Positions 17,754 through 39,605 of a stretch of 64,000 bases of DNA are shown in pieces. The first letter of the stretch is position 1. Every line of letters starts with the position of its first letter. Both the position numbers and the translations under genes were made by a program. Source of the DNA: Polyangiales bacterium (lineage in GTDB: Bacteria > Myxococcota_A > Polyangia > Polyangiales > Ga0077539); NCBI GenBank assembly GCA_044229975.1, contig JBGARZ010000002.1, positions 224,001-288,000 on the forward strand. Direction: 5' to 3'. Under the pieces are notes generated by a model. That model saw nothing but the letters and a program-made list of their open reading frames with translations, ran no database searches and had not been told where the DNA came from.

Positions 17754-17758
17754 GGCGA

Positions 17759-19792
17759 CTACTGCTTCCTTCCGGGCTTCGACCGAACCTTCAGCACCAA
17801 CTGCCTGCCGCCTCCGGGCGTCACGTCTTCAAAGGGGTTTCCCTCCCCTTCATCGGACAACTCCGGCGGTGGCGTCGACGGACGCGCCTCCACCTTCGGC
17901 GCCTCGGACTCCACCATGTCACCCGTCGCGCTCTCCGCTCCCTCCGCCGCAGGCGCGGCGCCCTCCACGGTCGGCATCGTGATGCGCACGTGGTTGGGCA
18001 GCGCGTCGGTGAAGTCCTTGAGCACGCTCTCCTCGGACACCTTCGTGATGCTGTGAATCGAGGCCGACAGCTCCACGATGTACTTCTCGAACAAGCTCTT
18101 GCGCTGCGTCTCCCAGCGCTCCGCCTGCTGCGCCTTCACCCACGTCCCGAGCTTGCGCCCGCACTCCATCAGCGCGAGCCGGATCTCCCGCACCACCTCG
18201 TCGTAGTGCGCGACGGCCTCCTTCGCCTCGCTCGTAAACGGCACCCACACGCTCGCCAGGTGCACGAAGATCGCCAGCGGGCCGACCGGCAGCTCGCCCT
18301 TGCGCTGCGACAGCCCGTACGACTTCCAATCGACCTTCAGCACCGCCTCGTGAATCGCGCACGCCCGCGGCTGGTACAGCAGCGGAACCCGATTGGCGAA
18401 GCGCAGCACGTCGGCCGAGTCTTCTTTGGACAACGTTCCGCCAAAGGCCACGCCCGCCTCCACCACGAAGGGATTGCCGCGGTACACCGCCGGCGGCCGT
18501 GTGTGCGACGTGAAGAACTCCCCTTTGAAGCGGCGCTTCAAGCCCTCCATGATGAGCGCCTCGCCCACCGGAACCACGCACGTCGCGGGCGGTGGCAGGA
18601 TCTTCACCTGCGAGCGCGCCATCGTCTCGTAGATCTTCTCGACCATCGTCGGCGTCGACAGCTTCGCCTTCTGCGTCGGCTCCAAGCCCGAGTTGCGCAG
18701 GATCAGATCCGCCAGCGACGCGCTGAACCCCGTCCCCTCTTCCAACAGCTCTTCGCGCAGGTTGGTGTCGGACTTCGCCAGCTTGCTCGCCAGCTTGCGC
18801 GGCGGCGGTAGCGCCGCGTTCGACGCCACCATCGCGGCGTGCAGCGCCTCGATCTTCGCCGCCTCTGCCTTCGGCGCCTGCGAGTCGGGGTTGAGGTCCG
18901 CGCGCTTGCACAGCTCATCGGCGACCGCCGACGTCACCCGCGAAAACTCCTCCATCAGCGTCGCGCGCACCGTGCGCCGCCCCGCCTCGTGCAGGATCTT
19001 GATGAGCATCCCGAGCTCGACCCCGTGCGGGTGCGGCTTGATCTCCTGCGCCTCGGGCGGGAGAAATTCGCTCACCCGCGGGTAGTGCACCGCCGCACCC
19101 TTCGGCGGCTTGTACGTCAGCTCCAGGTGGGGATTGGCCACCACCGTCTGCTCCAGGTACGCGTCCACCGACGTGCGACCGCCACGGTACAAACCCGTGA
19201 GCTCGATCTCGACGGACGTGCCGTGATCCTTCTCCCACGGCGACGTGTCGTTCTTGTCATTGAGCTGCTTGGGCTCGTTGGTGCGCGAGTCGATGCGCAC
19301 CTCCACCCGCCACGCGGGGCGACCCTTGCCGATCTTGCTCACCACCACCACCGGGCGGCCCGTCGTCAGGTGGCCGTACATGCCCGCCGCGCTGATGCCG
19401 ATGCCCTGCTGCCCTCGCGACTGCCGCAGCCGGTGGAACTTCGATCCGTACAGCAGCTTCGCGAAGATCTTGGGGATCTGCTCCTTCACGATGCCGGGGC
19501 CGTTGTCCTCGACGCGCACGCGGTAGCGGCCGTCGGAGACCTCCTCCACGGTGACCTCCAGCGTCGGGAGGATGCCCGCCTCTTCACAAGCATCGAGGGC
19601 GTTGTCGACCGCCTCCTTGATGGTCGTGAGCAGCGCCTTCGCGGGGTTGTCGAAGCCCAACAGGTGGCGGTTCTTCGTGAAGAACTCGCTCACCGAGATG
19701 TCGCGCTGCTTGGCGCCCATCGCCTCGGCGCTCGACCGGCGCCCCGCTGGCTTGGGGGCGTCGGTGTCCTGGACCACTGCTTCCGTCGTCAT
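17759..19792 (-). CDS. top6B: DNA topoisomerase VI subunit B
   Basis: SVSEFF, GHKL motifs KEAVDNALDA, DNGPGI, LYGSKF, SRGQQGIG; transducer RFANRVPLLY and VPFTSEAKEA. Start moved to ATG 19792. Confidence 0.93.
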   Translation of the reverse strand: MTTEAVVQDTDAPKPAGRRSSAEAMGAKQRDISVSEFFTKNRHLLGFDNPAKALLTTIKEAVDNALDACEEAGILPTLEVTVEEVSDGRYRVRVEDNGPGIVKEQIPKIFAKLLYGSKFHRLRQSRGQQGIGISAAGMYGHLTTGRPVVVVSKIGKGRPAWRVEVRIDSRTNEPKQLNDKNDTSPWEKDHGTSVEIELTGLYRGGRTSVDAYLEQTVVANPHLELTYKPPKGAAVHYPRVSEFLPPEAQEIKPHPHGVELGMLIKILHEAGRRTVRATLMEEFSRVTSAVADELCKRADLNPDSQAPKAEAAKIEALHAAMVASNAALPPPRKLASKLAKSDTNLREELLEEGTGFSASLADLILRNSGLEPTQKAKLSTPTMVEKIYETMARSQVKILPPPATCVVPVGEALIMEGLKRRFKGEFFTSHTRPPAVYRGNPFVVEAGVAFGGTLSKEDSADVLRFANRVPLLYQPRACAIHEAVLKVDWKSYGLSQRKGELPVGPLAIFVHLASVWVPFTSEAKEAVAHYDEVVREIRLALMECGRKLGTWVKAQQAERWETQRKSLFEKYIVELSASIHSITKVSEESVLKDFTDALPNHVRITMPTVEGAAPAAEGAESATGDMVESEAPKVEARPSTPPPELSDEGEGNPFEDVTPGGGRQLVLKVRSKPGRKQ

Positions 19793-19968
19793 GGGGGCGT
19801 CTGCTCCGTCGCGGTTTTCTCTGGAGATCAACGGGTCATCCCGGCGTCTTGAACGCCCATTCGAGTAGAACTTCACTGAACATGCGTCAAGTTCCCGAGG
19901 GAGCTGCGGCGCACGCGAGGGAGGGGCCGTCTGTCACGCGATCCCCGAGAAATCCAGCCAGTTGCACA

Positions 19969-22857: not shown

Positions 22858-23015
22858 GATGGTCCGCGCAGTGTAGTCGCGACCCGCGAGCGCCACCGAA
22901 GCACCCACGTCGCTCTGGAGAGCGTCGCCCACGCCCGCCCAGCGCGGGCGTGGGCGGGTGCTGCGTGCGAACACCGTGGCCATCCCCTCGCACGCTGCGA
23001 TATCTTCCGCGCCCT

Positions 23016-23828
23016 ATGGCGAAATCCAAGACTCCCGCTCCCCGCAAGGCAGGCGCGTCCAGCGCCACGACCACTACCGTGTCGAGCGCCGCTTCGGCGA
23101 AGTTCGATGCCGCCGCGAGGCTTATCCCCGAGGAGGCCGTTCGCAACATCCCGCAGTACCCGCGCGCCTGGCTCGCGTGGGCGGCGGGTGTCGCCGCGGC
23201 CGCCGCCCGGCAGTCCGCCGCGCTCGTGAAGGTGCCGCTCGAAGACGGCCCGCTCACGGCCGAGGAGATCCTCGAGCTCGCGCCCTTCATCGAGTACGTG
23301 CGCTCCACCAAGGGCCGCCTCGACGCCGACCGCACCACCGAGCACGACGTCGACCCGAGCGAGCTCGCGCTGCTCCTCAGCATCCGCGCCGACCAGCAGA
23401 AGATCATCCGCGCGTTTCGCACGCTGCGCTTCCGCCGCAACAAGGTGGGCCTCGGCCTCATCCGCAGCCTCGTGCGCGGATCAGCGCGCGACCCGCAGGA
23501 CGCCGTGCAGGACAACACCGGGCTGCTGAGCCTCTGCAACAGCGTCGACCACGAGAAGTGGCTCGCGAGCCTCCCCAACGGCGAGGGCGCCGCCGCCGCC
23601 CGCCTCTGGGACCGCCACAACGACCTCGTCACCCTCGCCGCCCGCTGGTCCGCGCCGACGGGCGCCCACGAGGCGCGCACCCACGCCCAGCGCCTCTGGA
23701 CCGCGCTGCGCCTCCGCCTGGAGCGCGTTCTCATCGCGGGCCGCTACCAGAACGCCGGTGACCGCGCCCTGCGCGACGAGTACCGGGGCTTCCGCCGCCC
23801 GACCGCGCGCAAGACGAAGAAGAAGTAG
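23016..23828 (+). CDS. Hypothetical alpha-helical protein with basic termini
   Basis: Strong GC3 coding bias; MAKSKTPAPRK...ARKTKKK; no family recognised. Confidence 0.65.
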   Translation: MAKSKTPAPRKAGASSATTTTVSSAASAKFDAAARLIPEEAVRNIPQYPRAWLAWAAGVAAAAARQSAALVKVPLEDGPLTAEEILELAPFIEYVRSTKGRLDADRTTEHDVDPSELALLLSIRADQQKIIRAFRTLRFRRNKVGLGLIRSLVRGSARDPQDAVQDNTGLLSLCNSVDHEKWLASLPNGEGAAAARLWDRHNDLVTLAARWSAPTGAHEARTHAQRLWTALRLRLERVLIAGRYQNAGDRALRDEYRGFRRPTARKTKKK

Positions 23829-25771: not shown

Positions 25772-28453
25772 ATGCCAGCCTCGTCGCCTGACCAACGACC
25801 GTCTCTCACGCGCGGACTCGGACTCTCCGCAGGCATCGTCGCGTTTGGCGGGGTCGGCATCGCGGACGGCGTCCTCGCGTGGTCGCGCGCCCCGCGTGGA
25901 TCGCTCCCCCCATCGCTCGGGCTGCTGGTGGTGCTCCAGTGCGCGGCCATCCTGGTGAGCTTCGGCATCGGGCTGGGTCTGTTGGAAGAGCTGGTGCTGG
26001 TCTCGGCGCGGCGCGTCCCGTGGTTGCAGCGCGTGGGCTCTTGGTGCCTCGGCGGCCCGCGGCGGTGGTTCGCTCGCGACCCCGACGGCGCGGCCATCGT
26101 CGCGTCGACGGCCATCGGGGTGGGCGTCGCGTTTGGCCCGCTGTACCCGCTCGCGCACTCGGTGTTTCACACCTTCCACTCGCGCTCGCTCGCGGCGCTG
26201 GCGGTGTTTCTCGCGCCCTTCGGCTTCGCCCTCGGCGCGATCGTCCTGCTGCTCCTCCTGTCGGGTCCGCTGCGGTGGTTCTTCCACCGCGTCGGGCGCG
26301 TCGCGTCGGTGGGGACGATGCTGTCGCTGTCGCTCTTCGTGGCGGTGGCGCAGTCGGTGCGGTTCTTCTCGCTCAACTGGGCGTCGTTTCGAAACCTCGA
26401 GTTCGGCGCCGTGGCGCTCGGGACGGCGCTGCTCGTCGCCAACGCGCTCGCGCTGCTGGGCTTCGGTCGTCGCGTGCTGCGCCTCGATCGTCCGCTGCGC
26501 TGGCGCGTGCCCTTCGCGCTGATGGTGATGGCGCTCGGGGCCTTCGTGACGTCGGCGTTTACGCTGGGCGCGCGGCAGACGGTGGCGGCGACGCTCTTCA
26601 ACCGCAGCCTCCTCGCGCAGCGGGTGGCGCGCGGCTTTCAGTTGAGCCTCGACCTCGACGGCGACGGCTACTCCGCGGTGTTCAACGGCGGCGACTGCAA
26701 CGACCGCGACGCGCGCATCTCACCGCGGGCGCACGACATCCCCGGCAACGGCCGCGACGAAAACTGCACCGGCCGCGACGCGCGCGTCGAGCGTGACGAG
26801 AGCGACGGTCACATCGTCCCGCTGCCGCCCGACGCGGCGACGCAGCGACCGAGCTTCGTGCTGCTCTCCATCGACGCGATGCGGCCCGACCACATGGGCT
26901 GCTACGGCTACCGCCGACCGACGACGCCCAACATCGATCGCTTCGCGCGCGGAGCGGCTCGCTTCACCAACGCGTACTGCGCATCGCCGCGCTCGCTGCG
27001 GTCGTTCGGGAGCATCTGGGCGGGGCGGTATGCGTCGATGGTTGCGTGGGGCAACGACGTGCAGTTTCCCCCGTTGGAGGCGTCCAACGTGACGCTCGCC
27101 GAGCAGCTCGGGTCGGCCGGGTACGCGACGGCGGCCTTCAACAACACGAGCTACTTCTCGCACACGGCGGGCTTCTTCCAGGGCTTCACGCAGGTGGCCG
27201 AGGAGTACGGGTTCAAGTCCGAGGTGGCTCCCACCATCGCGCGCATCCAGTCATTTCTGCGCGACCACGAGGGCGACCCGGCGCCGTTCTTCCTGTGGTC
27301 GCACCTGATGGAGCCGCACGACCCCTACCGCGACCGCACCGCGCCGCGCGACTTCGGCCACACGCCGATGGACACCTACGACGAGGAGATCGCCGCCGCC
27401 GACGACGCCCTCGGCGCGGTGCTCACGCAGCTCGACGCGCTCGCCACGCGACGTCCGCTGGTGGTGGTCATCTTTGGCGACCACGGCGAGGCCTTCGGCG
27501 AGCACGGCGTCTACCACCACTCCTTCGACCTCCACGAAGAGGCGCTGCGGGTGCCGATTCTCATCCGTGGTCCGGGCATCGCGCCGGGGCCGCGCAACGC
27601 GCTGACCAACCTGTTCGACCTGCACCCGACGCTGCTCAACTTCGCCAACCGCCGACCCGAGGCGCCCGTGTCGGGGCGCTCGCTCCTGCCGGTGCTCTTC
27701 GACCCGTCGCCGTCGACCATCACGCCGCCCGGTTGGCGCACGTCGATGTACGGCGAGGTCACGCCCGACGGGGTGTTTCCGTCGGAGCAGAAGTCCATCT
27801 ATGCGCCGCCGTTCAAGCTCATCCACGACCTGAGGCGCGGGACCTGGGAGCTGTTCGACATCGCGCACGACCGCGGCGAGATCCACAACCTCTACGACGC
27901 GCGCCCCGAGCTCGCGGCCGACCTGCGTGAGCGACTGGTGACGTGGACCGACCACGCCGCCACGGCGGGCAACAGCTCCAACGAGCTCATTGCGGCGGCG
28001 CGGTTGACGGCGGTTCCCGCGAACATCCAGCACCCGATGAACGTGCGCTTCGGCGACATCGCGGAGCTGCTCGGGTACGACCTCCCGGCCGATCGTGTGC
28101 CCATCGAGGGGACGTACCGCGCGGTGTTCTACTGGCGCGTGCTGCGTCGCACGCGGGTGCCGGTGTTGATGGTGACGTCCTTCGATCCGGTGGACGGACA
28201 GCCCATCTGGCCGCTCTTCGTCGCGCGGCACGTTCCCATCTACGGGCGCTACCCGACGACGGAGTGGCGCGCGGGAGAGATTCTCCGCGACGAGGTGACG
28301 TTGCGGGTCGACCCGGAGATGCGCGCGGCGCGGCTGCGAACCTTCGTCTCGCTGGAGATCGCCGAGACCGCGCAGAGGATTCCGCCGCTCACGGTGACGG
28401 CGCCCGACGCGCGGCTGGAGATCACCGCGGTCGACATCCTGCCGCGCCAATAG
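25772..28453 (+). CDS. Membrane-bound sulfatase-like (alkaline phosphatase superfamily) protein with putative metal-binding motif
   Basis: About 7 N-terminal TM segments; DLDGDGYS...DCND...GNGRDENC; SIDAMRPD, TTPNID, HLMEPH, GDHGEAFGEHG. Confidence 0.85.
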   Translation: MPASSPDQRPSLTRGLGLSAGIVAFGGVGIADGVLAWSRAPRGSLPPSLGLLVVLQCAAILVSFGIGLGLLEELVLVSARRVPWLQRVGSWCLGGPRRWFARDPDGAAIVASTAIGVGVAFGPLYPLAHSVFHTFHSRSLAALAVFLAPFGFALGAIVLLLLLSGPLRWFFHRVGRVASVGTMLSLSLFVAVAQSVRFFSLNWASFRNLEFGAVALGTALLVANALALLGFGRRVLRLDRPLRWRVPFALMVMALGAFVTSAFTLGARQTVAATLFNRSLLAQRVARGFQLSLDLDGDGYSAVFNGGDCNDRDARISPRAHDIPGNGRDENCTGRDARVERDESDGHIVPLPPDAATQRPSFVLLSIDAMRPDHMGCYGYRRPTTPNIDRFARGAARFTNAYCASPRSLRSFGSIWAGRYASMVAWGNDVQFPPLEASNVTLAEQLGSAGYATAAFNNTSYFSHTAGFFQGFTQVAEEYGFKSEVAPTIARIQSFLRDHEGDPAPFFLWSHLMEPHDPYRDRTAPRDFGHTPMDTYDEEIAAADDALGAVLTQLDALATRRPLVVVIFGDHGEAFGEHGVYHHSFDLHEEALRVPILIRGPGIAPGPRNALTNLFDLHPTLLNFANRRPEAPVSGRSLLPVLFDPSPSTITPPGWRTSMYGEVTPDGVFPSEQKSIYAPPFKLIHDLRRGTWELFDIAHDRGEIHNLYDARPELAADLRERLVTWTDHAATAGNSSNELIAAARLTAVPANIQHPMNVRFGDIAELLGYDLPADRVPIEGTYRAVFYWRVLRRTRVPVLMVTSFDPVDGQPIWPLFVARHVPIYGRYPTTEWRAGEILRDEVTLRVDPEMRAARLRTFVSLEIAETAQRIPPLTVTAPDARLEITAVDILPRQ

Positions 28454-28469
28454 GGCGGTCAGTGAATGT

Positions 28470-28493
28470 CCGACGCGGGCGAGCGTCGGTCTT
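28470..28493 (+). terminator. Possible weak intrinsic terminator after the sulfatase-like gene
   Basis: CCGACGC-GGGCGA-GCGTCGG stem followed by TCTT. Confidence 0.35.
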
Positions 28494-28521
28494 GCGGGCG
28501 TCGCGCGGGGGGACCTATGGT
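28492..28521 (+). promoter_or_regulatory. Putative sigma70-type promoter of the PARP-retron operon
   Basis: TTGCGG-18 bp-TATGGT, about 30 nt upstream of the PARP ATG; GAGGT RBS at 28541. Confidence 0.4.
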
Positions 28522-28551
28522 GCGGGCCGCGAAGGGCGACGAGGTGCTGTC

Positions 28552-30000
28552 ATGGCGGGTGTGAAGTCGTGGAAGTTTGGTGACGCGAGCGCTCCGGCAT
28601 TTCCCGATGATTTCGAGATCGCGCGCAAGGCGGTGTTGCAGGTCACGGACATCAAGACCAACCACAACAAGTACTACGCGGTGGAGGTCCACCAGGGGAC
28701 GTTGAAGGGCAAGCCGGTGTTCCGTGTGTTCACGCACTACGGGCGCACCGATGACCTGGAGAACAACCCCGAGGCGGGGCAGAAGGAGTGCCGCTACGCC
28801 AACACGCTGGGCGAGGCGCAGGCCATCTACGACGGCATCTATCGCGAGAAGACCTCGGCGGCGAAGGGCTACAAGGAGCTGAGCCTCGCATCGAGCAAGA
28901 TCGGCTCGCAGAAGGCGCGCGGCACGAGCGCGGGCGAGGTCGACGCCAAGACCATCAAGCGGCTCGCCGAACAGAAGGTGGCGCGCGGCGAGGTCGCGGC
29001 GACGACCATCAAGGTGTCCAACCTGAGCCCGACGGTGCAGTCGTTGGTGAAGTTGATCTACGCCGAGGCGACCAACGCGCTGACGACGGCCGTCAACGTG
29101 AAGATCACGGCCAACGGCATCGAGACGCCGCTGGGCATCCTGACGGTGGGGCAGATCGAGAAGGGAGAGTCCATCCTTCAAGACCTGTACAAGCTCTTTC
29201 AACAGGGCTCGAAAAACCGCAACAAGATGATCGACCTGTCGGGGGACTTCTATACGACCATCCCGCATCGCATCGGTCGCACGCGGGCCGCCATCGATGA
29301 AGCGGTGATCGACACGATGGAGGACTTCGAGGCCAAGCAGGAGACCCTTCAGCTCATGAAGGACATGCTCCAGGTCAACGGCGACGGCGGATCGGTGCTC
29401 TTCGAGAGCAAGGTCGACGAGCAGTACGAAGCGCTCAAGTGCGGCATCACGATGCTGGAGCGGTCGAACCCGACCTACGACGAGATCGAGCAGTTCGTCC
29501 TGAAGAGCCAGATCAAGACGAAGGCCATCAAGGTGAAGAACGTCTACACCCTGCGGCGCGCTGGCGAGCACGAGGTGTTCACCAACCACATCGACAACCA
29601 GCGGCTGCTCTTCCACGGCTCGCGCATCAAGAACTGGGTGGGCATTCTCTCGCGCGGCATCCTGATGCCGAAGATCGTCGTGAGCATGGGCGTCAACCGC
29701 ACCGACGCGGGCTGGCTCGGCAACGGCATCTACTTCGGCGACGCGTCGTGCACGAGCGCGTTCTACACGTCGCCGGCGAAGTCGGGCGCGCGCTTCATGG
29801 CGCTGGCGAAGGTCGCGCTCGGCAAGATGAAGCCGTACACGAAGATCACCTACGGCATCGCCGAGGCGCCCGCGGGCTTCAACTCCTGCCACGGCGTGCG
29901 AAACCAGAAGGGCAACGACTCGCAGTTCTCCGATGACGAGTACGTGATCTACGACTCGCGTCAGCAGCGCCTGGATTACCTGGTCGAATTCACGATGTAG
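28552..30000 (+). CDS. Poly(ADP-ribose) polymerase (WGR + regulatory helical + catalytic ART domains)
   Basis: NHNKYY...THYGRT (WGR); PLGIL and FYTTIPH (regulatory); LLFHGSR, GIYFG, DDEYVIYD (H-Y-E triad). Start moved to ATG 28552. Confidence 0.92.
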   Translation: MAGVKSWKFGDASAPAFPDDFEIARKAVLQVTDIKTNHNKYYAVEVHQGTLKGKPVFRVFTHYGRTDDLENNPEAGQKECRYANTLGEAQAIYDGIYREKTSAAKGYKELSLASSKIGSQKARGTSAGEVDAKTIKRLAEQKVARGEVAATTIKVSNLSPTVQSLVKLIYAEATNALTTAVNVKITANGIETPLGILTVGQIEKGESILQDLYKLFQQGSKNRNKMIDLSGDFYTTIPHRIGRTRAAIDEAVIDTMEDFEAKQETLQLMKDMLQVNGDGGSVLFESKVDEQYEALKCGITMLERSNPTYDEIEQFVLKSQIKTKAIKVKNVYTLRRAGEHEVFTNHIDNQRLLFHGSRIKNWVGILSRGILMPKIVVSMGVNRTDAGWLGNGIYFGDASCTSAFYTSPAKSGARFMALAKVALGKMKPYTKITYGIAEAPAGFNSCHGVRNQKGNDSQFSDDEYVIYDSRQQRLDYLVEFTM

Positions 30001-30011
30001 GGAGAGTTGCC

Positions 30012-30794
30012 ATGGATGCTCAGGTGATCCTGGTGGATGTGAATCCGAAGATGGTGGCGGCGTGGCGGGAGGTCTTCGTCGACCACCCGGAGGTGCTGAT
30101 CGTCCATGGGTCGATGACCGACCAGGCGACGAGCGCGTGGGTCACGCCGACCAACAGCCGCGCGCAGATGGACGGCGGGCTTGATGGGGTGATCAAGAAG
30201 TTCCTGGGGCCGTCGATCCAGACGAAGGTGCAGTCGGAGGTGGCGAAGCGGTACCAGGGGACGATGCCGCTGGGTCACGCGACCTGTGTGGCGACGGGCG
30301 CGCCGAAGCCGCGGTGGCTCATCTCGACGCCGACCATGGTGGGCCGCTCGGACGACGTGTCCGATACGCTCAACGTGGCGCTCGCGTGCGCGGCGGCATT
30401 CCAGATGGTGCGGATGCAGAACGCGGCGGCGCCGGGGAGCATCGGCTCGGTGGCGCTGCCGGGCTTGGGCGCCAACACGGGCAAGGTGCCGGTGGAGATC
30501 TGCGCCGACCTGATGTGGACGGCCTACAACCTGGTCAGCAACCAGAACTTCACGGGCTTCCACGACATGCGCGTGGCGCTGGAGGCCGAGCTCGGAGCGC
30601 TCGGCAATGACGTGCAGGCCAAGCCGGTGACGAGCGCGCCCATGTACAAGGGCGGCGTCGTGCCGACCAAGGCCGCGGTGATGGCGGCGAAGGGTCCGAT
30701 GATTCCACCGAAGGGCCCGGTGATTCCGCCGAAGGTGGTGGGTGGCGTGGTGCCGAAGCCCAAGCCGCTGGCTGACTTCGACGACACCGAGTGA
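30012..30794 (+). CDS. Macrodomain protein (ADP-ribose binding/hydrolase)
   Basis: VHGSMT, WVTPTNSRAQMDGGLD, LISTPTM, VALPGLGANTG; GGAG RBS right after the PARP stop. Confidence 0.85.
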   Translation: MDAQVILVDVNPKMVAAWREVFVDHPEVLIVHGSMTDQATSAWVTPTNSRAQMDGGLDGVIKKFLGPSIQTKVQSEVAKRYQGTMPLGHATCVATGAPKPRWLISTPTMVGRSDDVSDTLNVALACAAAFQMVRMQNAAAPGSIGSVALPGLGANTGKVPVEICADLMWTAYNLVSNQNFTGFHDMRVALEAELGALGNDVQAKPVTSAPMYKGGVVPTKAAVMAAKGPMIPPKGPVIPPKVVGGVVPKPKPLADFDDTE

Positions 30795-30847
30795 CCCGGT
30801 AAGTTGCCCATGAAGCGCCACCCGAAGCAGCGTCCCGGAGCATCTCC

Positions 30848-33382
30848 ATGAGCGTTCGAGGGATCGTGATGCGAATGTTCCGCCCGACCGGGGCGGAGCG
30901 GTTGGTGGCCATCTCGGCGGAGTCGGTCGCGGGGTCACCCGGGCGGCTGACGCTGAAGGTTCAGCGGTTCTTCCGGCGGGGGAAGCTCACGGGAACGGAG
31001 GCGTATGGGCCCTTCCCCGAGGCGGAGCTGGAGCAGCGGCTCGCGGACCTCGCCGACGACCTCGCGTCGGAGGGGTACACGCGCGCCGGGGTGCGGGCGA
31101 TGATCGATCGCCTGCAGAGTCCGAGCGCCCGTCGTCGCGCGATGTCGGCCGCGCGGCTCGGGTGGATCGGCGATCGCGCCGCGGTCGATCCGCTGCTTGA
31201 TCGGGCGACGTTGGAGGGCACGGAGCTCACCAGCGTGGTCGAGGCGCTGGGTCGGCTGGGCGACCTGACGGCGGCGCCGCTGGCGCGTGCAGAGGCCGAG
31301 CGGAAGCTGTTGTCGCGGCGTCGGGCGGGCGCCGAGGCGCTGCGCGCGATGGGCGATGCGGTGGGTTTGGCGGAGGTGGTGCAGCGGGCCGTCGATCGGC
31401 TGCCGCAGGCGATGCGCGACGCGTGGAAGGCGACGGACGCGAGCGCCCACGAAGAGGACGCGCTCGTCGACCTGGAGACGGTGTTCGCCCACCTCGACGT
31501 GAAGGAGCAGTTTCTCGCGTTGGACTCGCTGTATGAGGTGGCGACGCCGCTGGCGCTGGCCTTCGTGCGGCGGGTGTTGTCGACGCACGCGGAGGTGCAC
31601 CGGCCGCATCGCTGGCGATACACCAAGAGCATCCTGCGACGCGCGACGATGCGTGACGATGCGGAGACCTTCGGGGTGATCATGCGGCGGGTGGAGCTGC
31701 TGAGTCGCAAGCCGGCGATGACCATGGCGGTGGTGAAGAGCGGGCTCGACGGTCAGAGTCGGCAGACGCGGGTGTTCAGCAAGCAGACCGAGCGGCACGT
31801 TCGCAAGGCGAGCTGGCGCTACCTCGAACGCCTCGGTCGCTATCGCCCCGCCCGCTACACCGAGGTCGCGGCGGGCTTCCTCGCGGCGCTGCGCCCGGAG
31901 GATCGCGAGCTGCCGAAGGGTGACGGCGACGAGTGGTCGCGGGTGTTTCTCTACAACCGCATCCTGCGGCGCTTCGATGCGCGGGTGAGGTTGAATCCGA
32001 AGACGCTGCGAAGCGCGGTGCCGGTGACCAAGGGGGCGAAGGGCGCGGCGATCAGCGACCAGCGGGTCGAGTCGTTTCCGGGGCTGTGGGACGCGTATCC
32101 GCGGCCGCTGCTCACGCTGCTGGCGAAGGCGCGCGCGACGGAGGTGCAGCAGTTTGCGCTGCTGGCGGTGAGACGGCGGCATCCCGATTTGTTGCGTGAG
32201 GCGACGGCGCAGGAGCTCGCCGACATGCTGACGGCGGCACACCCGGACGTGTTGGAGCTCGCGGTCAACGAGCTCGATCGGAGGTTCGATCCGGCGAAGC
32301 CCGACTGGGCTTTGCTCGAAGCGTTGATGGTCGACGATCGCGCGGTGATTCGTGAGCACGCGGTCGCGATGCTGGCGCGTTGCGCCGATCAGTGGACCTC
32401 GGACATCGAGCGGGTGATGCGCTACGTGGGCGCGTCGGACGCGGCGCTCCGATCGACGGCGGCGTCGGTGGTGCTGGCGGCGCTGCCCGCGGCGGACGCG
32501 TGGTTTCGTCGCGAGCTTGCCGAGCGGGTGCTGGCGAAGTTGCAGTCCGTGGAGCCGACGGAAGGAGCGCACGATGGCTACGCGCGCGTCGCGCGAGATG
32601 GGCTGTCCGAAGAGCTCAACGCCATCCTCGGGCTCGACGAGATTCTCGCGATGATCGACGGCGGGTCGATCGCGGCGAAGGTGGCGGGCGGGGCGCTGCT
32701 GGGGTCGCGGCCCGAGGCGGTGGAGACGCTCGGGACCGATCGCATCCTGGCGATGGCGATGAGCGACATCGCGGCGGTGCGGGCGTCGGCGCACGCGCTG
32801 CTCCACGGCGCGGTGGCGAAGCTGCGAGCTGATCCGTCGGTGCTCTTCGCGCTGACAGACTCGGAGTGGAAGGACACGCGGACCTTTGCGTTCGAGCTGC
32901 TGCGCGGGCCGGTGGACGTCGCGGCGCTGGGCCTCGATGGCATCGTGGGCCTGTGTGATTCCAATCGCGAAGACGTGCAGGGCTTCGGGCGCGAGATGGC
33001 GCTCAAGCACTTCGACGCGCTCGACACCGCGGAGCTGCTGCACCGGCTGGCGGAGCACCCGTCGGCGGTGATTCGTCGCTTCGCGGTCGACCTCGCGGTG
33101 GCGCACTTGAAGGACGGCTTCGTGGCGCTGTCGCGGCTGGAGGCGTTCTTCCGCAGGTCGTTGTTGGACGTGCGGCCTGACCGGCGCGAGAAGCGTCTGG
33201 TGGTGGACTTCCTGCGCGAGCGCGGACTGCGCGACGAGCGGCAGGCAGAGGTCGCGTCGCGGGTGCTGGGTGAGTTCGTGCGGACGCGGGGGAAGGCGGA
33301 CTTCGAGAGCGCGCTCGATGCGCTGGTGCGACTGAAGCTGCGCTACCCCGAGGTCGAGTCGGTGGTCGGAGGTCTCGCGTGA
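30848..33382 (+). CDS. HEAT/ARM-repeat protein with degenerate N-terminal WGR-like domain
   Basis: Repeated HEAT-like units (ARRRAMSAARLGWIG, VVEALGRLG, VRASAHALL, IRRFAVDLA); GGAG RBS; stop overlaps the next start (GTGA). Confidence 0.75.
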   Translation: MSVRGIVMRMFRPTGAERLVAISAESVAGSPGRLTLKVQRFFRRGKLTGTEAYGPFPEAELEQRLADLADDLASEGYTRAGVRAMIDRLQSPSARRRAMSAARLGWIGDRAAVDPLLDRATLEGTELTSVVEALGRLGDLTAAPLARAEAERKLLSRRRAGAEALRAMGDAVGLAEVVQRAVDRLPQAMRDAWKATDASAHEEDALVDLETVFAHLDVKEQFLALDSLYEVATPLALAFVRRVLSTHAEVHRPHRWRYTKSILRRATMRDDAETFGVIMRRVELLSRKPAMTMAVVKSGLDGQSRQTRVFSKQTERHVRKASWRYLERLGRYRPARYTEVAAGFLAALRPEDRELPKGDGDEWSRVFLYNRILRRFDARVRLNPKTLRSAVPVTKGAKGAAISDQRVESFPGLWDAYPRPLLTLLAKARATEVQQFALLAVRRRHPDLLREATAQELADMLTAAHPDVLELAVNELDRRFDPAKPDWALLEALMVDDRAVIREHAVAMLARCADQWTSDIERVMRYVGASDAALRSTAASVVLAALPAADAWFRRELAERVLAKLQSVEPTEGAHDGYARVARDGLSEELNAILGLDEILAMIDGGSIAAKVAGGALLGSRPEAVETLGTDRILAMAMSDIAAVRASAHALLHGAVAKLRADPSVLFALTDSEWKDTRTFAFELLRGPVDVAALGLDGIVGLCDSNREDVQGFGREMALKHFDALDTAELLHRLAEHPSAVIRRFAVDLAVAHLKDGFVALSRLEAFFRRSLLDVRPDRREKRLVVDFLRERGLRDERQAEVASRVLGEFVRTRGKADFESALDALVRLKLRYPEVESVVGGLA

Positions 33383-35067
33383 TCGTCGAGTTCAAGTACG
33401 CGGGCCAGAGCGGCATCGTGAGCGGGCTGCGCGACACGCGGGTGGGTCTCGCGACCAACAGCGTGCGCGACCCGGCGTTCTTCAAAGGAGTGATGCGCTC
33501 GCCGACGCTCTTCCGTGAAGGGATGGCGGCGCTCTATTCGGTGGTCGTCAGCGACTACAAGTTTCGCCCGCGCGACCGGCTGGCCTTCAAGGCGTGGCTC
33601 GACCAGCAGGACCAGAAGTTTCTCGCCAACCTGGGCAACCGCACCGAAGACGCCAGGCGACGCATCGCGGCGCTCGAAGCCCGGCGCGATGTGCTCGACC
33701 AGAAGCGCATCGACCGGCTCAAGCCCTTCTACCGGGCGCGCGCCGAGTACTTCGACTGGGTCTACACGCACCAGTACGAGCTGAAGTACCTGCTCGACCC
33801 GGTCATCACGGTGCACCCCGACGAGCTGTCCTTCGAGGCGTTTTCGAAGGACGAGAGCTCGTACGCGCGGGTGGGCGTGAAGTACGACCTCTTCGAGAAG
33901 ATCGACGAGTTCGCGTGCGGCACGACGAACATCGACTTCAGCGCGTCGCTGCACGGTGAGCTCGATCGGATGCGGAGCTATCGCCGTACGCGCTTCGACA
34001 TCGACCCGTCGGGCCTGGCGGTGGCGCGCGAGGGGAGCGCGTCGCACAAGGAGAAGAAGATCGACCTGCCTGAGAGCTGGGTGAAGGGATTTCTCCAGGT
34101 GCAGTCGGCGATGACGCTGGGGCTCACGCGGCTGCGCATCGAGCCGGTGGACCTCTACAACCTCTGCCGCTTTCTCAAGCGCCACAAGGCCAAGGAGTCG
34201 CCGCGGGCGATGCGGTGGGAGCTGGTCCCGGGCAAGCGCGCGCGGGTGGTGTTCGAGCCGTGGGAGGCCGCGGTGGAGATGGGCGCCAGCGCGGTGTACG
34301 ACGGCCCGAAACCGGTGAGCATCCGGACGTGGGGTCGCGATCGGTTGAGCACCCTCGCCCGCATCATCCCGATGGCTCAGCGCATCGACGTGTTTCTCGC
34401 CGGCACGGGGCTGCCGACGGTGTGGCTGGTCGACCTGGGTGAGATCACGTTCACGCTCGCGCTCTCGGGTTGGACCGACAACGACTGGACGGCGGGCACC
34501 GGGCGCTTCGATCTCCTGTCGCGCCGGATGGATGCGTCTCCGTTGGAGCTCGCTTCGACCTGGGATGCCCTCAAGGTGCAGCGGCGTGGCACGGACGTGG
34601 GGCTCTCACAAGCGACGGGCCTGGGGCTGGAGAAGACCCGCAGCGCCCTCTCGTATCTGTGTCAGGTGGGAAGGGCGATGTACGACCTGGGTGGCGGCGT
34701 CTATCGACAACGCGAGTTGTTCGCGGAGCCGTTTACCACCAAGGAGGCGGTGGCCGCGGCGGTGGCGCCTGCGCCGAGCGAGACCTCGCCCGCCGGGCAG
34801 AAGGCGCAGACCATCTTCAACGCGGGGGGCGTGCTCATCACGGCGCGGCGCCCGGTGTCCAATGGATACAAGCTGTCAGGTAGCGTGAAGGGGGTGGACG
34901 GTTATCGGTATCGCCCGATGCTGGGAGTGGACGCCGCGGGGAAGATCCTGGAGGCGACCTGTACTTGCGCCTGGTCGCAGAAGCATGGTCTAACGCAGGG
35001 GCCTTGTGAGCATGTGCTCGCGCTGCGCCTCGGCCACATGCACCGGCTCGAAGCCGAGGGCGCGTAG
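33379..35067 (+). CDS. SWIM zinc-finger domain protein
   Basis: C-terminal CTC-x12-CEH (CxC...CxH SWIM); DPVITVHPD, FEAFSKDESSY, DLPESWVKGFLQVQSA, LALSGW. Confidence 0.85.
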   Translation: MIVEFKYAGQSGIVSGLRDTRVGLATNSVRDPAFFKGVMRSPTLFREGMAALYSVVVSDYKFRPRDRLAFKAWLDQQDQKFLANLGNRTEDARRRIAALEARRDVLDQKRIDRLKPFYRARAEYFDWVYTHQYELKYLLDPVITVHPDELSFEAFSKDESSYARVGVKYDLFEKIDEFACGTTNIDFSASLHGELDRMRSYRRTRFDIDPSGLAVAREGSASHKEKKIDLPESWVKGFLQVQSAMTLGLTRLRIEPVDLYNLCRFLKRHKAKESPRAMRWELVPGKRARVVFEPWEAAVEMGASAVYDGPKPVSIRTWGRDRLSTLARIIPMAQRIDVFLAGTGLPTVWLVDLGEITFTLALSGWTDNDWTAGTGRFDLLSRRMDASPLELASTWDALKVQRRGTDVGLSQATGLGLEKTRSALSYLCQVGRAMYDLGGGVYRQRELFAEPFTTKEAVAAAVAPAPSETSPAGQKAQTIFNAGGVLITARRPVSNGYKLSGSVKGVDGYRYRPMLGVDAAGKILEATCTCAWSQKHGLTQGPCEHVLALRLGHMHRLEAEGA

Positions 35068-35069
35068 GA

Positions 35070-35362
35070 TGTCGAAGGAGGTGTTTCGAGAGGTCGATCG
35101 AGGACGGGGCGTGGTGAGTGCCTTAGCAATCTGTGCGGCGTTACGCCGCGCTTGTCGAAGTGCCCGCCATTCGTCACGAGCCCGTTCATCACACGCGTAC
35201 CCCGACGGTGCCCGGCGCCGTTCTGGTTGGGTGCCTCCGGCACCACGGCGCCATGGCACCATCGGGGTACGCTTTCAGTGGAACGGTCGCGTCCCAGGGA
35301 TGTTCGTAAGCCCACCGCGCCCCGTCCCCGATCGATCCTCGAAGCACCACTCTCTTCCGACA
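35070..35362 (+). ncRNA. Retron non-coding RNA (msr-msd)
   Basis: Terminal inverted repeat 35080-35116 / 35313-35348; CTTA 35122-35125 pairs with TAAG 35307-35310, leaving G35126 unpaired; msr hairpin 35133-35151; long msd hairpin 35195-35272; lies directly upstream of a retron-type RT. Confidence 0.85.
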
Positions 35363-35375
35363 ACGGAGGTCGCCC

Positions 35376-36761
35376 GTGGCCATTGACCACAAGGCCGCCC
35401 TCTACCGACGCCTCGTGCGCGAGGCGAGCGACGGCGCCGCGGTCGACCGTATGCGCGTCAACGGCTTCTGGCCGTGGGACCAAGGGATCCCCGCCGACCC
35501 GGCCGCCGAGCGGAAGGAGCGGGCCGAGATCGAGGGCGAGATCGCGAAGATCCAGGCCCAGTCGACCAAGGCCATCGACCCCGACAAGGCGCTGGCCCAG
35601 GAGCGCAAGCGGCGCTGGGAGGAGAGCAAGAAGCGCCGCGCGGCGAAGCGCCAGGAGCGCATGGCCAAGGCGAAGAAGCGCCGGGGCGACTTCCTCCTCT
35701 ATCGACAGCGCAACATCCTGCACCTCGGGATGGGCGTCAGCGCCGGGCTTCAGGACACCAATCCCGACACGCGTGAACTCGCGCGGCGCGGACTCCCCGT
35801 CGCCACGCAAGGCGCCGACCTCGCGATGATGATGGGGGTTCCGCTCGGCACGCTGCGCTGGTTGTGCTTCCACCGGAGGGGGGCGGCGCTGGTGCACTAC
35901 CACCGCTTCGGCATCCCCAAGAAGAGTGGCGGCATCCGCGCCATCTCGGCCCCGAAGCCTCGGCTCGCCAACGCGCAACGCTGGGTCTTTCAGAACATCC
36001 TCGAACGCCTCGACGTCGCACCGCCCGCGCATGGCTTCGTGCGGCACCGCTCCATCCTCACCAACGCGACCCCCCACGCAGGTCGCGCCGTGGTGATGAA
36101 CCTCGACCTCAAGGACTTCTTTCCTTCGGTGACGTTTCGTCGCGTGAAGGGGCTCTTCCGCAAGGTCGGATACAACGAGCACGTCGCGACCATCCTCGCG
36201 CTGCTCTGCACCGAACCGCCGCGGGCGAGGGTCGAGGTCGACGGTCGGGTGATCTACCTCGCGCTCGGCGACCGCGTGCTGCCGCAGGGTGCCTGCACCA
36301 GCCCGGCGATCACCAACGCCCTGTGCAAGCGGCTCGATGCGCGTCTGTCGGCGCTCGCGGCGCGACACGACTTCACGTACACGCGCTACGCCGATGACCT
36401 CACGTTCTCGGGAGAAGACGCCGCGCGCGTGGGTCGACTGCGACGCAGCGTGGTGAGCATCGTGACGTCGGAGGGCTTCACCGAAAACGCCGCCAAGACC
36501 CGCGTCATGCACAAGGGGTCGCGGCAGGAGGTGACCGGGCTCACCGTCAACGAGCGGCCGACGATGCCGCGCGACGAGTATCGGCAGCTCCGCGCGATGC
36601 TCCACAACGCGGCGAAGCTCGGCCTGGAGAGCCAGAACCGCGCACACCATCCGGCGTTTGCACAGTACCTCCAGGGACGCGTGGAGTTTGCGTGCTGGGC
36701 CGATCCGACGCGGGCGCCGAAGCTACGAGAGGCCCTCGCGGCTGCCCTCGCGCGAGGCTGA
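35376..36761 (+). CDS. Retron-type reverse transcriptase with charged N-terminal extension
   Basis: YADD at 36387-36398, NATPH (retron NAxxH), VTGL (retron region Y), DLKDFFPS, LPQGACTSP; GGAGGT RBS at 35365. Confidence 0.93.
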   Translation: MAIDHKAALYRRLVREASDGAAVDRMRVNGFWPWDQGIPADPAAERKERAEIEGEIAKIQAQSTKAIDPDKALAQERKRRWEESKKRRAAKRQERMAKAKKRRGDFLLYRQRNILHLGMGVSAGLQDTNPDTRELARRGLPVATQGADLAMMMGVPLGTLRWLCFHRRGAALVHYHRFGIPKKSGGIRAISAPKPRLANAQRWVFQNILERLDVAPPAHGFVRHRSILTNATPHAGRAVVMNLDLKDFFPSVTFRRVKGLFRKVGYNEHVATILALLCTEPPRARVEVDGRVIYLALGDRVLPQGACTSPAITNALCKRLDARLSALAARHDFTYTRYADDLTFSGEDAARVGRLRRSVVSIVTSEGFTENAAKTRVMHKGSRQEVTGLTVNERPTMPRDEYRQLRAMLHNAAKLGLESQNRAHHPAFAQYLQGRVEFACWADPTRAPKLREALAAALARG

Positions 36762-36770
36762 CGCCGCGCC

Positions 36771-39605
36771 CTACGGTGGGGCGACGAGCGGCACGGCGGC
36801 GATCATCACCACCGCGAACGCGACGGACGACTGAAGGCTGACGGCGCGCAATCGACGCGGGTCGTCGAAGGTGACGACGAGCTGCTGGGTTCCGCGGCGG
36901 AGCGCGAAGGGCGGGGCGTCTTCCACGGTGAGCGCGCCGGCGTCCCGCGCGTTGATCTGGAGGTAGATGCGCTGCACCGGCGCGGGCTGCCGAGCGCGGA
37001 GGGCGACGCGAACGCGTCGTTGAAAACGCGGGGCGTTGGAGCGCGAGCCGAGGATGGTGTTGCCGGGCTCCTGGGCGCGAGCGAGGAGGTCACCGGCGCG
37101 ATCGAGGGGGTCGTTGGCGCCGAGGCCCGACGCGAGGCGGGGCACGACGTCGGGGTCGCCGAGGCTGATGAGCGCGTCGAGCGCCGCGCGGCGAGTCAAC
37201 GGGTAGCGGGTGCGCGCGAGCGTGGCGACCAGCGGGGGAATCGCGGACGCGTCGCCGAGGGCGCCCAGCGCTTCGGCGCCGACGGGGGCGAGGCGCGGGC
37301 TCTCCAGCAGCGCCTGCCAGGTGGCGCGCGAGGTGGGTGATCGCGCCGCGAGGAGCAACGCGATGGCGCGGTCGCGCTCGGCGTCGGAGGCGTGCTCGTC
37401 GGCCGCCCACGCGTTGAGCACCGGGATCGCCGCGGGGACCCGAAGTGCAGCCAAACCGAGCGCCGCCCTCCGTCGCTGGGCCTCGTCCGACGTCGCGGTG
37501 AGCACGCGGGTGGCGATCTCCTGTCCGCGCGCGTCGCCCAGCATCACGAGCGACACGGCGGCCTCGTCGGACAAGGGCGCCGGTCGCGGCAGCAGCGAGG
37601 CGAGCGCTTCGCGGACCTCCGCCGAGCGGTCGTCGAGGTCACCGAGCACACGCGCTGCTCTCGCCGCGAGCTCGGGGTCGCTGGCGAGTAGCAGCATCGC
37701 GACCTCCCTGGCGGCGTTGCGATCCCCCTGGAGCGCCCGCGCGAGCGCCGCGGGGATGACGGCCTCGGTACGTCGTGAACGCGCCGCTGCTGCGTCGCCG
37801 TGGGCGCCCTCCCAGCCGACGACCAACGATCGCAGCGCTCGCGTTCGTGCGGGGTCTTCGTCGGCGCGGTTGCGGCGCTCGCCGGGGTCGCGGGTGAGGT
37901 CGTAGCGCTCAAGGGTTCCGTCGGCGTTGTCGACGATGAGCTTGTCGTCGCCGTCGACGACCATGCGGAGGGAGCCGGTCTCGGCGAAGGCCAGCGTGGG
38001 CGGGCGATCGGTGGTCGCCAACGCGCCGAGGTCGCTGCCCTCGACGCCGGGAGGGAGCGCGCTTCCGACGCCGCGGAGGATGGTGGGCAGGAGGTCGACC
38101 AGGCTCACCGGCGCGGAGACCACGCGCGGCGTCACGCCCGGCGCGACGATGATGAGCGGAACGCGCGCCTGCTCGTCGTAGAGGGAGGTTCCGTGGAAGG
38201 AGCCGCCGTGCTCGCCGAACTCTTCGCCGTGGTCGGCGGTGATGATCCAGGTGACGGGGCGCGCCCAGCCGTCGATGAGCGCGCCGAGGGCGTCATCGAC
38301 CGCGCTGCATTCGGCGTCGTAGCGGGCGCGGGCGTCGCTTCCGTAGGGGTGCTCCGGGTGGACGACGTAGGGCTCGTGCGGCTCGAAGAGGTGCAGCCAC
38401 GCGAAGCCATGTTGGTCGCGGCGGAGCGTTCGCGACCAGCGGAGGGCGTCCTGCACGCGGGTGTCGGCGGGGGCCCACGACTCGTCGGCCATCTGGAGAT
38501 CCCAATGACGAGAGGCCAACGTGCGGAAGCGATCGCCGTCGACGAAGAAGACCGCCGGCGGGTACCAGCCCGCGGTGGTGTAGCCCGCTTCGCGCAGACG
38601 ACCCGCGAGGGTCATGGTGCGACCGAAGCGCGCGCCGAGGGCCATGGCGGCGCGGGCGTGTGTTCCGGTCATGAGCGAGGCGAGCGAGTAGCTCGTATGC
38701 GGCGTGGCGGTGTACGCACGGCGGAAGAGCAGGCCGCGCGCAGCGAGCGCGTCGAGGCGGGGCATGCGACCGCGACCGCCGAGCGCGCGGAGGGCGTCGG
38801 CGCGAAGTGCGTCGACGGTGACCAGGACCACGTCGCCCTCGGAGAGGGGGAGAGATGCACCGTCGGTGCGGCGGGCGCGGCGGACGACAGGCGTCGCGTC
38901 GTCGCCCGGATGGAGGAGGCCGGCCAGGCGCGCCGTGTACTGGCCGAGCGGCGAGAGGCGTCGCACGGAGGCGCGGGCGCCGTGTCCCGAGAGTAGCGAG
39001 ATCACTGCCCACGTCATCAACGCGACGACGGGCGCGCGAACGAGCCACACGCGACGGCCCGAGGCGCGAGGTTCGTTGAGCGACGCGGCGCCGCACCACG
39101 CGGTCGTCGCGATCCAGGCGAGGAGCGCGTGCAGGAGCTCGTACTGCCGCACCAGCACCGTCGCGTGGATGAGGTAGAGCGCCGTCGCGCCCATCGCGAT
39201 GACCCAGGATGACGCGCGCAGCGGGCGCTCCCGGCGCGCGGCGAGGAGTCCCACGATGGCGCTCGCGACGACCGCGAGTGCAACCAGTGGGCGATGCAGG
39301 CCGAGGCGATGGATGCCCGTTCCGGAGAAGAGGGCGAGGCCCGCCCACGCGCCGAAGCCGGCCGCCGCGAGCGTCGCGACCGCGGGGCGCAGCGACGCGG
39401 GAATGCGCCGCCAGATCGCGGACGCCGCGACGCGAGCGACGCCGACCACCGTCACGGCGAGGGCCGACGCGCCGAGGACCGTGAACAATCCAACGGTCCA
39501 CGCACCCTGTGCATCGCGGGAGAGGGCCATCACGGCGTCGAGCACCGCCGCCGCTCCCGCGACCGCGAGCGTCGCGTCGATGGCCCTCCCGCGCGCGACC
39601 ATCAC
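36771..39605 (-). CDS. Membrane-bound sulfatase-like protein with C-terminal HEAT repeats
   Basis: N-terminal TM segments; VTVDALRAD, HLFEPH, ADHGEEFGEHG; HEAT-like repeats after about aa 610. Confidence 0.8.
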   Translation of the reverse strand: MMVARGRAIDATLAVAGAAAVLDAVMALSRDAQGAWTVGLFTVLGASALAVTVVGVARVAASAIWRRIPASLRPAVATLAAAGFGAWAGLALFSGTGIHRLGLHRPLVALAVVASAIVGLLAARRERPLRASSWVIAMGATALYLIHATVLVRQYELLHALLAWIATTAWCGAASLNEPRASGRRVWLVRAPVVALMTWAVISLLSGHGARASVRRLSPLGQYTARLAGLLHPGDDATPVVRRARRTDGASLPLSEGDVVLVTVDALRADALRALGGRGRMPRLDALAARGLLFRRAYTATPHTSYSLASLMTGTHARAAMALGARFGRTMTLAGRLREAGYTTAGWYPPAVFFVDGDRFRTLASRHWDLQMADESWAPADTRVQDALRWSRTLRRDQHGFAWLHLFEPHEPYVVHPEHPYGSDARARYDAECSAVDDALGALIDGWARPVTWIITADHGEEFGEHGGSFHGTSLYDEQARVPLIIVAPGVTPRVVSAPVSLVDLLPTILRGVGSALPPGVEGSDLGALATTDRPPTLAFAETGSLRMVVDGDDKLIVDNADGTLERYDLTRDPGERRNRADEDPARTRALRSLVVGWEGAHGDAAAARSRRTEAVIPAALARALQGDRNAAREVAMLLLASDPELAARAARVLGDLDDRSAEVREALASLLPRPAPLSDEAAVSLVMLGDARGQEIATRVLTATSDEAQRRRAALGLAALRVPAAIPVLNAWAADEHASDAERDRAIALLLAARSPTSRATWQALLESPRLAPVGAEALGALGDASAIPPLVATLARTRYPLTRRAALDALISLGDPDVVPRLASGLGANDPLDRAGDLLARAQEPGNTILGSRSNAPRFQRRVRVALRARQPAPVQRIYLQINARDAGALTVEDAPPFALRRGTQQLVVTFDDPRRLRAVSLQSSVAFAVVMIAAVPLVAPP

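Follow-up and report, generated by a model that had tools for sequence, protein, structure and literature searches.

The multicopy single-stranded DNA (msDNA) of myxobacteria was discovered in 1984, as stated in the available part of PMC6868368, and characterised retrons are described as phage-triggered in the available part of PMC12548924. For type XIII retrons, the protein of cluster 114 has been reported to carry a DEDE motif, a winged helix and a SWIM motif of the form CxCx12CxH (PMC7736814), and our literature searches found no tested function for a retron of this type. Bacterial PARPs are presented in the available part of PMC4245714 as sporadic and of unknown function. Here we describe a locus in Polyangiales bacterium GCA_044229975.1 (contig JBGARZ010000002.1, positions 224,001-288,000 of the forward strand; all positions below are counted within this 64,000-nt window) where the two meet. 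Six co-oriented units occupy positions 28552-36761 of the + strand in the order WGR-PARP, macrodomain, HEAT protein, SWIM protein, msr-msd RNA and reverse transcriptase (RT). Our analysis identifies a real and intact type XIII retron, whose subtype is distinguished by having its own PARP4-like transferase and Ymx7-like macrodomain. The best explanation of the data is that the PARP-like enzyme, the macrodomain and the retron (HEAT, SWIM, msr-msd and RT) form one co-inherited unit.

Distribution of the genes was analysed in 221 genomes of the order, each at least 88% complete, which were searched three times, with the PARP, the macrodomain and the SWIM protein. Presence was scored at an identity of at least 59% for the PARP, at E <=1e-45 for the macrodomain and at an identity of at least 51% for a SWIM protein of the same subtype. 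All three are found in an identical set of 25 of the 221 genomes, spread over four families, and none of the 221 holds one of them without the others. Three additional SWIM matches (41-44%) belong to another subtype, which is without such a PARP. The RT adjoins the SWIM gene in loci from all 25 positive genomes. No p-value is attached to this pattern because related genomes are not independent. The cluster is intact in 12 of the positive genomes and runs across a contig break in 2 (G321 and G360, counted as linked, with PARP-macrodomain-HEAT and HEAT-SWIM-RT at contig ends). In the remaining 11 the genes are scattered, with all parts kept in at least 4 different arrangements: PARP and macrodomain lie away from the retron in G293, G295 and six members of genus g2, PARP alone is split from macrodomain and retron in G249 and G269, and the parts lie on three contigs in G406. 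A single operon is therefore not required.

Searches were also made from either side of the locus. Among 49 metagenome loci obtained with the SWIM protein, which include a few near-duplicates, 21 extend at least 1.2 kb upstream of the HEAT gene; 18 of these carry PARP and macrodomain, 1 the macrodomain only and 2 neither. The 30 loci obtained with the PARP comprise 9 with all five genes in order, 4 in which PARP-macrodomain-HEAT(-SWIM) runs into a contig end, 13 with PARP-macrodomain and 4 with PARP only, several loci of the last two groups being short. A SWIM_XIII gene is present somewhere in 29 of the 30 PARP-side genomes, compared with 31 of 251 in a sample of the phylum. In the family itself, 18 of 30 genomes at least 70% complete have both the PARP and a close SWIM protein. 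A preliminary description of this DNA had named linkage of the PARP and macrodomain genes to this retron as decisive, and the linkage is borne out by both the 25 genomes and the 18 of 21 informative SWIM-side loci. The link is not a matter of chance, and functional coupling of some kind appears probable to us. Because the retron, the PARP and the predicted eraser share genomes even when their genes lie apart, the system likely signals by reversible ADP-ribose tagging.

The joint absence of the parts is also documented. Two genomes of the same genus (G305 and G307; 91% and 93% complete) are without PARP, macrodomain, SWIM and RT_XIII. In G305, the downstream sulfatase has as its direct neighbour a deoxyhypusine-synthase-like gene, the one that lies ahead of the PARP in other members of the genus. 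The same site in G307 retains a decayed SWIM end and an msr-msd relic of 76% identity over 343 nt (L063:4044-4730), which is a dead copy of this system. This relic adjoins what we take, from its likeness, to be a fragment of an IS5-type transposase. Trees of PARP and SWIM built from 41 pairs agree for the most part, with a distance correlation of 0.77, 13 shared supported splits and one conflicting pair.

It is possible in principle that PARP and macrodomain make up an independent writer/eraser pair, comparable to a toxin and its antitoxin, which was an ancestral neighbour of the retron and has been passively co-inherited. The two genes do remain paired where they are split from the retron (genus g2, G293 and G295), either documented loss could be a single deletion, and 7 genomes carry a second, unlinked macrodomain paralogue. 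However, the macrodomain lies near HEAT-SWIM with the PARP elsewhere or not found in G249, G269, G301 and L106, all three parts lie apart in G406 and G025, and not one of the 221 genomes holds one part without the others. We consider passive co-inheritance quite improbable.

Table 1. Features of the locus, with positions within the 64,000-nt window
Feature	Position	Strand	Basis
WGR-HD-ART ADP-ribosyltransferase (HD, helical regulatory domain; ART, ADP-ribosyltransferase domain), 482 aa	28552-30000	+	Pfam WGR 2.6e-8, PARP_reg 1.2e-19, PARP 1.9e-29
Macrodomain (~200 aa) with Pro/Lys-rich tail	30012-30794	+	Pfam Macro 2.4e-11
Type XIII HEAT/ARM protein, 844 aa	30848-33382	+	PADLOC WGR_XIII 2.9e-104, HEAT-ARM_XIII 2.2e-65
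Type XIII SWIM protein, 562 aa, putative nuclease	33379-35067	+	PADLOC SWIM_XIII 2.8e-181; Pfam SWIM
msr-msd non-coding RNA	35070-35362	+	Fold, covariation, a1/a2 arms
a1/a2 arms, 23 nt, extending outward	35094-35116 and 35313-35335	+	Inverted repeat
Predicted branch G35126 in TAGC	35126	+	Invariant G in 20/20 homologues
msr hairpin	35132-35150	+	Predicted fold
msd hairpin	35195-35272	+	Predicted fold
Type XIII retron RT, 461 aa	35376-36761	+	PADLOC RT_XIII 4.8e-158, best of 63 models; Pfam RVT_1

All six units listed in the preliminary description are present on the + strand where it had placed them (Table 1). The spacings of 11 nt and 53 nt and the GTGA overlap that it gave are seen directly in the sequence, and those of 2 nt and 13 nt around the RNA are consistent with the outer stem of the fold. 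The candidate promoter that it had put in front of the genes was not recovered, as a scan of 28200-37000, blind to promoter types other than sigma-70, returned 0 sigma-70-like sites. A scan for terminators gave 6 matches compared with 3.6 expected, and the 3' end of a co-oriented sulfatase gene lies 98 nt before the PARP start. The type XIII identity of the retron holds: PADLOC assigns the last three proteins (HEAT, SWIM and RT) to type XIII retrons, whereas PARP and macrodomain match none of its models.

By sequence, the HEAT, SWIM, msr-msd and RT units constitute an intact type XIII retron. The RT contains the motifs NATPH (residues 230-234), YADD (338-341) and VTG (386-388), which are conserved in its homologues and correspond to the retron RT motifs YADD, NAXXH and VTG as defined in the available part of PMC6868368. 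About 130 residues precede its core, forming the N-terminal extension expected of a clade 10 RT. Beside the RT gene lies a non-coding RNA with an inverted repeat, a priming G and an msd hairpin. The branch motif reads TAGC in 12, TGGC in 7 and CAGC in 1 of 20 homologues. The RNA at 35060-35380 folds with a z-score of -9.7, and 0 of 100 shuffled sequences were equally stable. Among 15 homologues, two-sided changes occur at 48 of 71 pairs, and 93.8% of cells pair compared with 35-46% when partners are slid, a pairing figure that is flattered by the use of one alignment both to derive and to test the structure. Rfam gave no match anywhere in the window. The msDNA is predicted to be ~140-150 nt in length, with inferred ends. 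In other loci, msr-msd copies follow the SWIM gene without a neighbouring RT, as tandem pairs in L115:11740-12302 and L081:3008-3481 and as a single copy in L052:6618-6871. Frameshifts in the RT of L018:16821-18202 and in the HEAT and SWIM genes of L135:5234-9501 reflect either sequencing errors or decay.

Type XIII accessory proteins of cluster 216 are characterised by an N-terminal WGR-like domain, but the HEAT protein has no Pfam WGR match. Its N-terminus aligns to the WGR-like N-terminus, bearing YGK, of another subtype, and the WGR motif is lost here with VARG as the consensus. Because this motif has decayed in the subtype, the WGR of the PARP is the sole clear WGR of the system. In the SWIM protein, the first four residues of a DEDE-like motif (D140/D148/E153/D186/E225) are invariant and E225 is conserved in at least 90% of an alignment of 59. 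The last spacing of this motif is 38, compared with the published 37 (PMC7736814). The SWIM-motif residues C528-C530-C543-H545 fit CxCx12CxH, and a winged helix is matched weakly (E 0.018). Profile search of the SWIM protein among solved structures returned no nuclease relative.

The PARP carries the catalytic triad H355-Y394-E463, which is invariant in all 105 homologues that share at least 58% identity with it. The nearest solved structure is human PARP4 (E 7.6e-43), with PARP2, PARP1 and PARP3 weaker (1e-28 to 1e-21, and 1e-28 to 1e-24 for PARP1 and PARP2). Mapping through alignments with PARP4 and PARP2 places T401 and D461 at the acceptor positions K903 and Y986 of PARP1, and W388 at the M890 position, in 105/105 homologues. 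Changes at K903 and Y986 have been named as limiting PARP4 to mono-activity (PMC10711553). Because of this PARP4-type acceptor site (T401 and D461), the enzyme is predicted to be a mono-transferase, which probably attaches single ADP-ribose units and not chains. The preliminary description had instead proposed that perturbation by phage leads to poly-ADP-ribosylation or an NAD+ drain, which the macrodomain then resets. The intact triad, WGR and regulatory domain are compatible with such an output, a Herpetosiphon PARP makes DNA-dependent polymer according to the available part of PMC4245714, and some doubt over a mono-only reading comes from the bulky Trp that takes the place of M890. However, the Thr and Asp which restrict PARP4 are present without exception, so that a DNA-dependent poly-ADP-ribosyltransferase is matched in its WGR-HD-ART architecture with H-Y-E and not in its acceptor site (K903/Y986/M890). 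The linked erasers are a Ymx7-like macrodomain and an ADP-ribosylglycohydrolase (ARH), and no PARG was noted in the open reading frame listings of the loci, where no search was aimed at PARG. Polymer formation or a lethal NAD+ drain is highly improbable in our opinion.

The WGR of the PARP retains N37, N39, K40, Y63, R65, K100 and Y107, again invariant in 105/105 homologues. Judged from motif spacing and a weak PARP3 alignment (E 0.2), these residues would correspond to N127, N129, K130, W151, R153, K183 and Y201 of PARP2, which sense a phosphorylated DNA end and relay activation (available part of PMC8190142). In total, 899 homologues of the PARP were retrieved at E <=1e-30, including one from Pendulispora rubella; near relatives are titled Myxococcota and remoter ones Planctomycetota. 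Of 201 genomes sampled from the phylum to which G024 belongs, G024 alone holds the PARP. Eukaryotic proteins (a marine transcriptome and Acytostelium; P0004 and P0022 among the long matches) are 44-51% identical to the PARP over its full length and are fused to BRCT, ankyrin or WWE domains, and other long matches bear UDG, PNK3P or RNA ligase domains. A predicted complex of the PARP with HEAT 88-345 and SWIM 135-390 scored 0.00, and is used neither for nor against an interaction.

The macrodomain has N48, G56 and D58 invariant in an alignment of 36. Its alignment-based model reached a pLDDT of 91, while a single-sequence fold (pLDDT 51) was discarded. Foldseek places yeast Ymx7 (1njr) at rank 1 (E 1.6e-10, TM 0.68, 22% identity), with macroH2A, MacroD2, YmdB and DarG (rank 6) below it. 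Ymx7 is an ADP-ribose-1''-monophosphatase, and the modelled fold suggests an eraser or a reader. PARP3 caps DNA-end phosphates with single ADP-ribose, and MACROD2 and ARH3 take these caps off (available part of PMC5725667). By our reasoning, the bond cleaved by Ymx7 would be chemically equal to the bond made by ADP-ribose on a terminal phosphate. ARH represents a second eraser family: by tblastn, 15 of 42 loci have an ARH gene within 1.5 kb after the RT, and the count becomes 16 of 41 once L105 (Pfam) is included and L144 (other subtype) excluded. ARH was considered and rejected as an obligatory part: each of the 11 positive genomes outside this family has a close orthologue, but so do 9 module-free genomes, and the family of the present genome has none. 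Seven genomes of this family hold a second stand-alone macrodomain paralogue (54-58%), away from PARP and retron (L147:6291-6998, L148:6309-7001 and L149:6089-6856).

From these observations, our preferred reading is that the locus encodes a retron-gated, reversible mono-ADP-ribosylation switch which is used against phage. We hold this reading tentatively and give it slightly less than an even chance. By analogy with other retrons, the RT, msDNA, HEAT and SWIM proteins may form a sensor particle, in which the RT would make a hairpin msDNA that gates the PARP-like enzyme. Because the helical regulatory domain and the PARP2-type DNA-end residues of the WGR are kept, the transferase would stay off until triggered, perhaps through nicking or release of the msDNA by a nuclease or DNA-binding protein from a phage. 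Once active, the transferase might attach single ADP-ribose units to a DNA-end phosphate or to one of the particle's proteins, for example the putative SWIM nuclease, while the Ymx7-like macrodomain, together with ARH in many lineages, would set the threshold and reset the system. The overall output would likely be an anti-phage alarm. It is also conceivable, though unlikely, that the PARP4-like enzyme has the msDNA as its dedicated ligand, and perhaps also as its substrate, in a bacterial ribonucleoprotein (RNP) that reversibly caps DNA-end phosphates. If so, this would be the first retron with a resettable writer/eraser output instead of a one-way toxin, and it would parallel, in bacteria, the association of PARP4 with the vault RNP. 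It would also fit a broader pattern of type XIII retrons that have taken up DNA-end enzymes with WGR domains, a PARP here and a DNA ligase in sister subtypes.

Several observations weigh against this anti-phage switch. The enzyme activity, the binding and the anti-phage output are predictions from genes, and a fragment of human PARP4 showed no stimulation by vault RNA (PMC10711553). The flanking genes are housekeeping genes (topoisomerase VI, recG, greA, purM/N and sulfatases), the PADLOC matches among 36 neighbouring genes are to generic domains (kinase, ABC and E1), and the GC content at third codon positions (GC3) of the locus is host-like at 0.89-0.93. Inheritance looks vertical, unlike that of typical mobile defence systems. 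Both documented losses occurred where the genes are linked and a single deletion clears everything, and the agreement of PARP and SWIM trees, which has no housekeeping-gene control, could also follow from vertical descent alone. A quick tree puts the RTs of the subtype on one side of a branch with modest support (SH-aLRT 82), and the same genome encodes two more PARPs of ~26% identity (L039 and L041; contigs C11 and C24). Exceptions also exist: G301 (87% complete) has macrodomain-HEAT-SWIM with no PARP found, G287 (76% complete) and G029 have PARP-macrodomain without this SWIM subtype, G027 has a 57% PARP with only SWIM genes of another subtype, and L091 and L076 carry neither PARP nor macrodomain upstream. 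An adjacent RT is missing in L115, L081, L052, L091 and L106; the first three retain one or two msr-msd copies, while L091 and L106 are without RT and msr-msd alike.

The module is single-copy in the genome and no defence island is present in the 64-kb window. With the housekeeping surroundings and the host-like GC3, this leaves the defence role as first claimed unsupported. The same context favours another function, in which the coupled module serves housekeeping DNA-end signalling or repair: the msDNA would be a standing ligand or decoy that tunes a break-marking mono-transferase, and macrodomain and ARH would uncap breaks before ligation. The host-like codon use, the single copy and the vertical pattern agree with such a role, and it has been suggested that vertically inherited retrons are perhaps domesticated (PMC7736814). 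Further support comes from ligases, as sister type XIII subtypes have an upstream ATP-dependent DNA ligase (L133 and L140) and a WGR-type protein, a PARP is fused to an ATP-dependent ligase in L100, and L107, L110 and L111 have a fusion of ARH with a BRCT-bearing, NAD-dependent ligase. However, this NAD ligase could be no more than the housekeeping ligA, the copy in this genome being 59% identical to that of L080. The module is also absent from 196 of 221 genomes of the order and was twice lost within one genus, which would be odd for core repair. We regard the repair function as somewhat unlikely.

Organization of the related loci varies. In L133:12538-15537 and L140:1562-6298, the ATP-dependent DNA ligase gene lies directly upstream of WGR-HEAT, SWIM and RT. 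A WGR and beta-propeller gene is found upstream in L133 by Pfam, and genes with a similar N-terminus are found in L140, L141:2953-4461 and L142:12019-13485. The ligase-PARP fusion is located at L100:3926-6733, and the ARH-ligase-BRCT fusions come straight after the RT (L107:13389-16448, L110:13478-16837 and L111:11690-14935). ARH and NAD-dependent ligase are separate adjacent genes in L080, and ARH is fused to a DSP-type phosphatase in L121. In another type XIII subtype (L051, L053, L067 and L145), a 2100-aa protein precedes SWIM and RT, with WD40 and HEAT by Pfam in L051, L053 and L067.

Phage and plasmid collections yielded distant PARPs only (9 and 20 records, with a full-length identity of at most 30% among the matches listed), and there is therefore no sign of a mobile carrier. 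In the soil metatranscriptome X1 (word share 0.06), contigs of a ~90%-identical relative cover the PARP, the two junctions upstream and HEAT-SWIM-ncRNA-RT. Their mean depth is 215, and no bin of a neighbouring 19.8 kb exceeds 36. This is only a hint of transcription, because contigs cannot prove a single transcript or rank the genes and DNA was possibly present. Elsewhere in the window, subunits A and B of DNA topoisomerase VI (16569-19876) adjoin a dCTP deaminase, and a 292-aa gene at 22950-23828 has no Pfam match; a gene with a similarly Lys-rich start follows the RT in L009. The genome also contains five matching copies of a group II intron-like RT.

No publication on retrons together with PARPs was found by title or abstract, although a prior mention is possible in the supplement of PMC7736814 (neighbour clusters), which lay outside our coverage. 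Neither 'PARP' nor 'macro' occurs in the main text of PMC7736814, PMC13712802, PMC12548924 or bioRxiv 10.1101/2020.06.21.156273, and 'PARP' is absent from the main text of PMC7159879 and PMC11974896. 'PARP' is likewise missing from the supplements of PMC13712802, where the rows with 'Macro' do not belong to type XIII. That the PARP and the retron of this subtype always travel together provides a lead on the function of both, and NAD+-dependent labelling should depend on RT and msd. The PARP itself offers a PARP4-like enzyme that is compact and conserved, and that may have as its activator a defined DNA encoded in the genome.

Compared with known systems, the locus resembles DarTG in that an ADP-ribosyltransferase gene adjoins that of a macrodomain eraser. 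However, the transferase here is of PF00644 with a regulatory domain and is not DarT, the macrodomain is nearer to Ymx7 than to DarG, the pair is tied to a retron, and neither PARP nor macrodomain has a PADLOC match to DarT/DarG. Retrons of the Retron-Eco1/Ec86 type have an NAD-consuming NDT effector and so share an NAD+-using retron output, but they differ in RT clade and effector fold, in having no eraser gene and in being small mobile operons. The architecture WGR-HD-ART is shared with PARP2, PARP3 and the PARP of Herpetosiphon aurantiacus, and PARP3 mono-ADP-ribosylates DNA-end phosphates reversibly (available part of PMC5725667). Similarity to these enzymes is lower (E 1e-28 to 1e-21), K903 is absent here, and a retron link is unreported for them in the literature examined. 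Human PARP4, the vault PARP, is the best solved match to the HD and ART and combines H-Y-E with a dead acceptor site (T and D) and an RNP association; this likeness is one of profile match and residues. In contrast to PARP4, the PARP of the present locus lacks BRCT, VIT and vWA, has only 482 residues (Pfam: WGR, PARP_reg and PARP only) and keeps the DNA-end WGR residues of PARP2/3, whereas the WGR of PARP4 aligns below threshold only. The closest relatives are the type XIII retrons Mx162, Mx65, Sa163 and Ne144 (PMC7736814), with which the locus shares the RT clade by hidden Markov model, the SWIM/DEDE and HEAT/ARM proteins, the msr-msd before the RT and the vertical myxobacterial pattern. It differs from them in the degenerate WGR of the HEAT protein and in the addition of a dedicated PARP and macrodomain, often with ARH.

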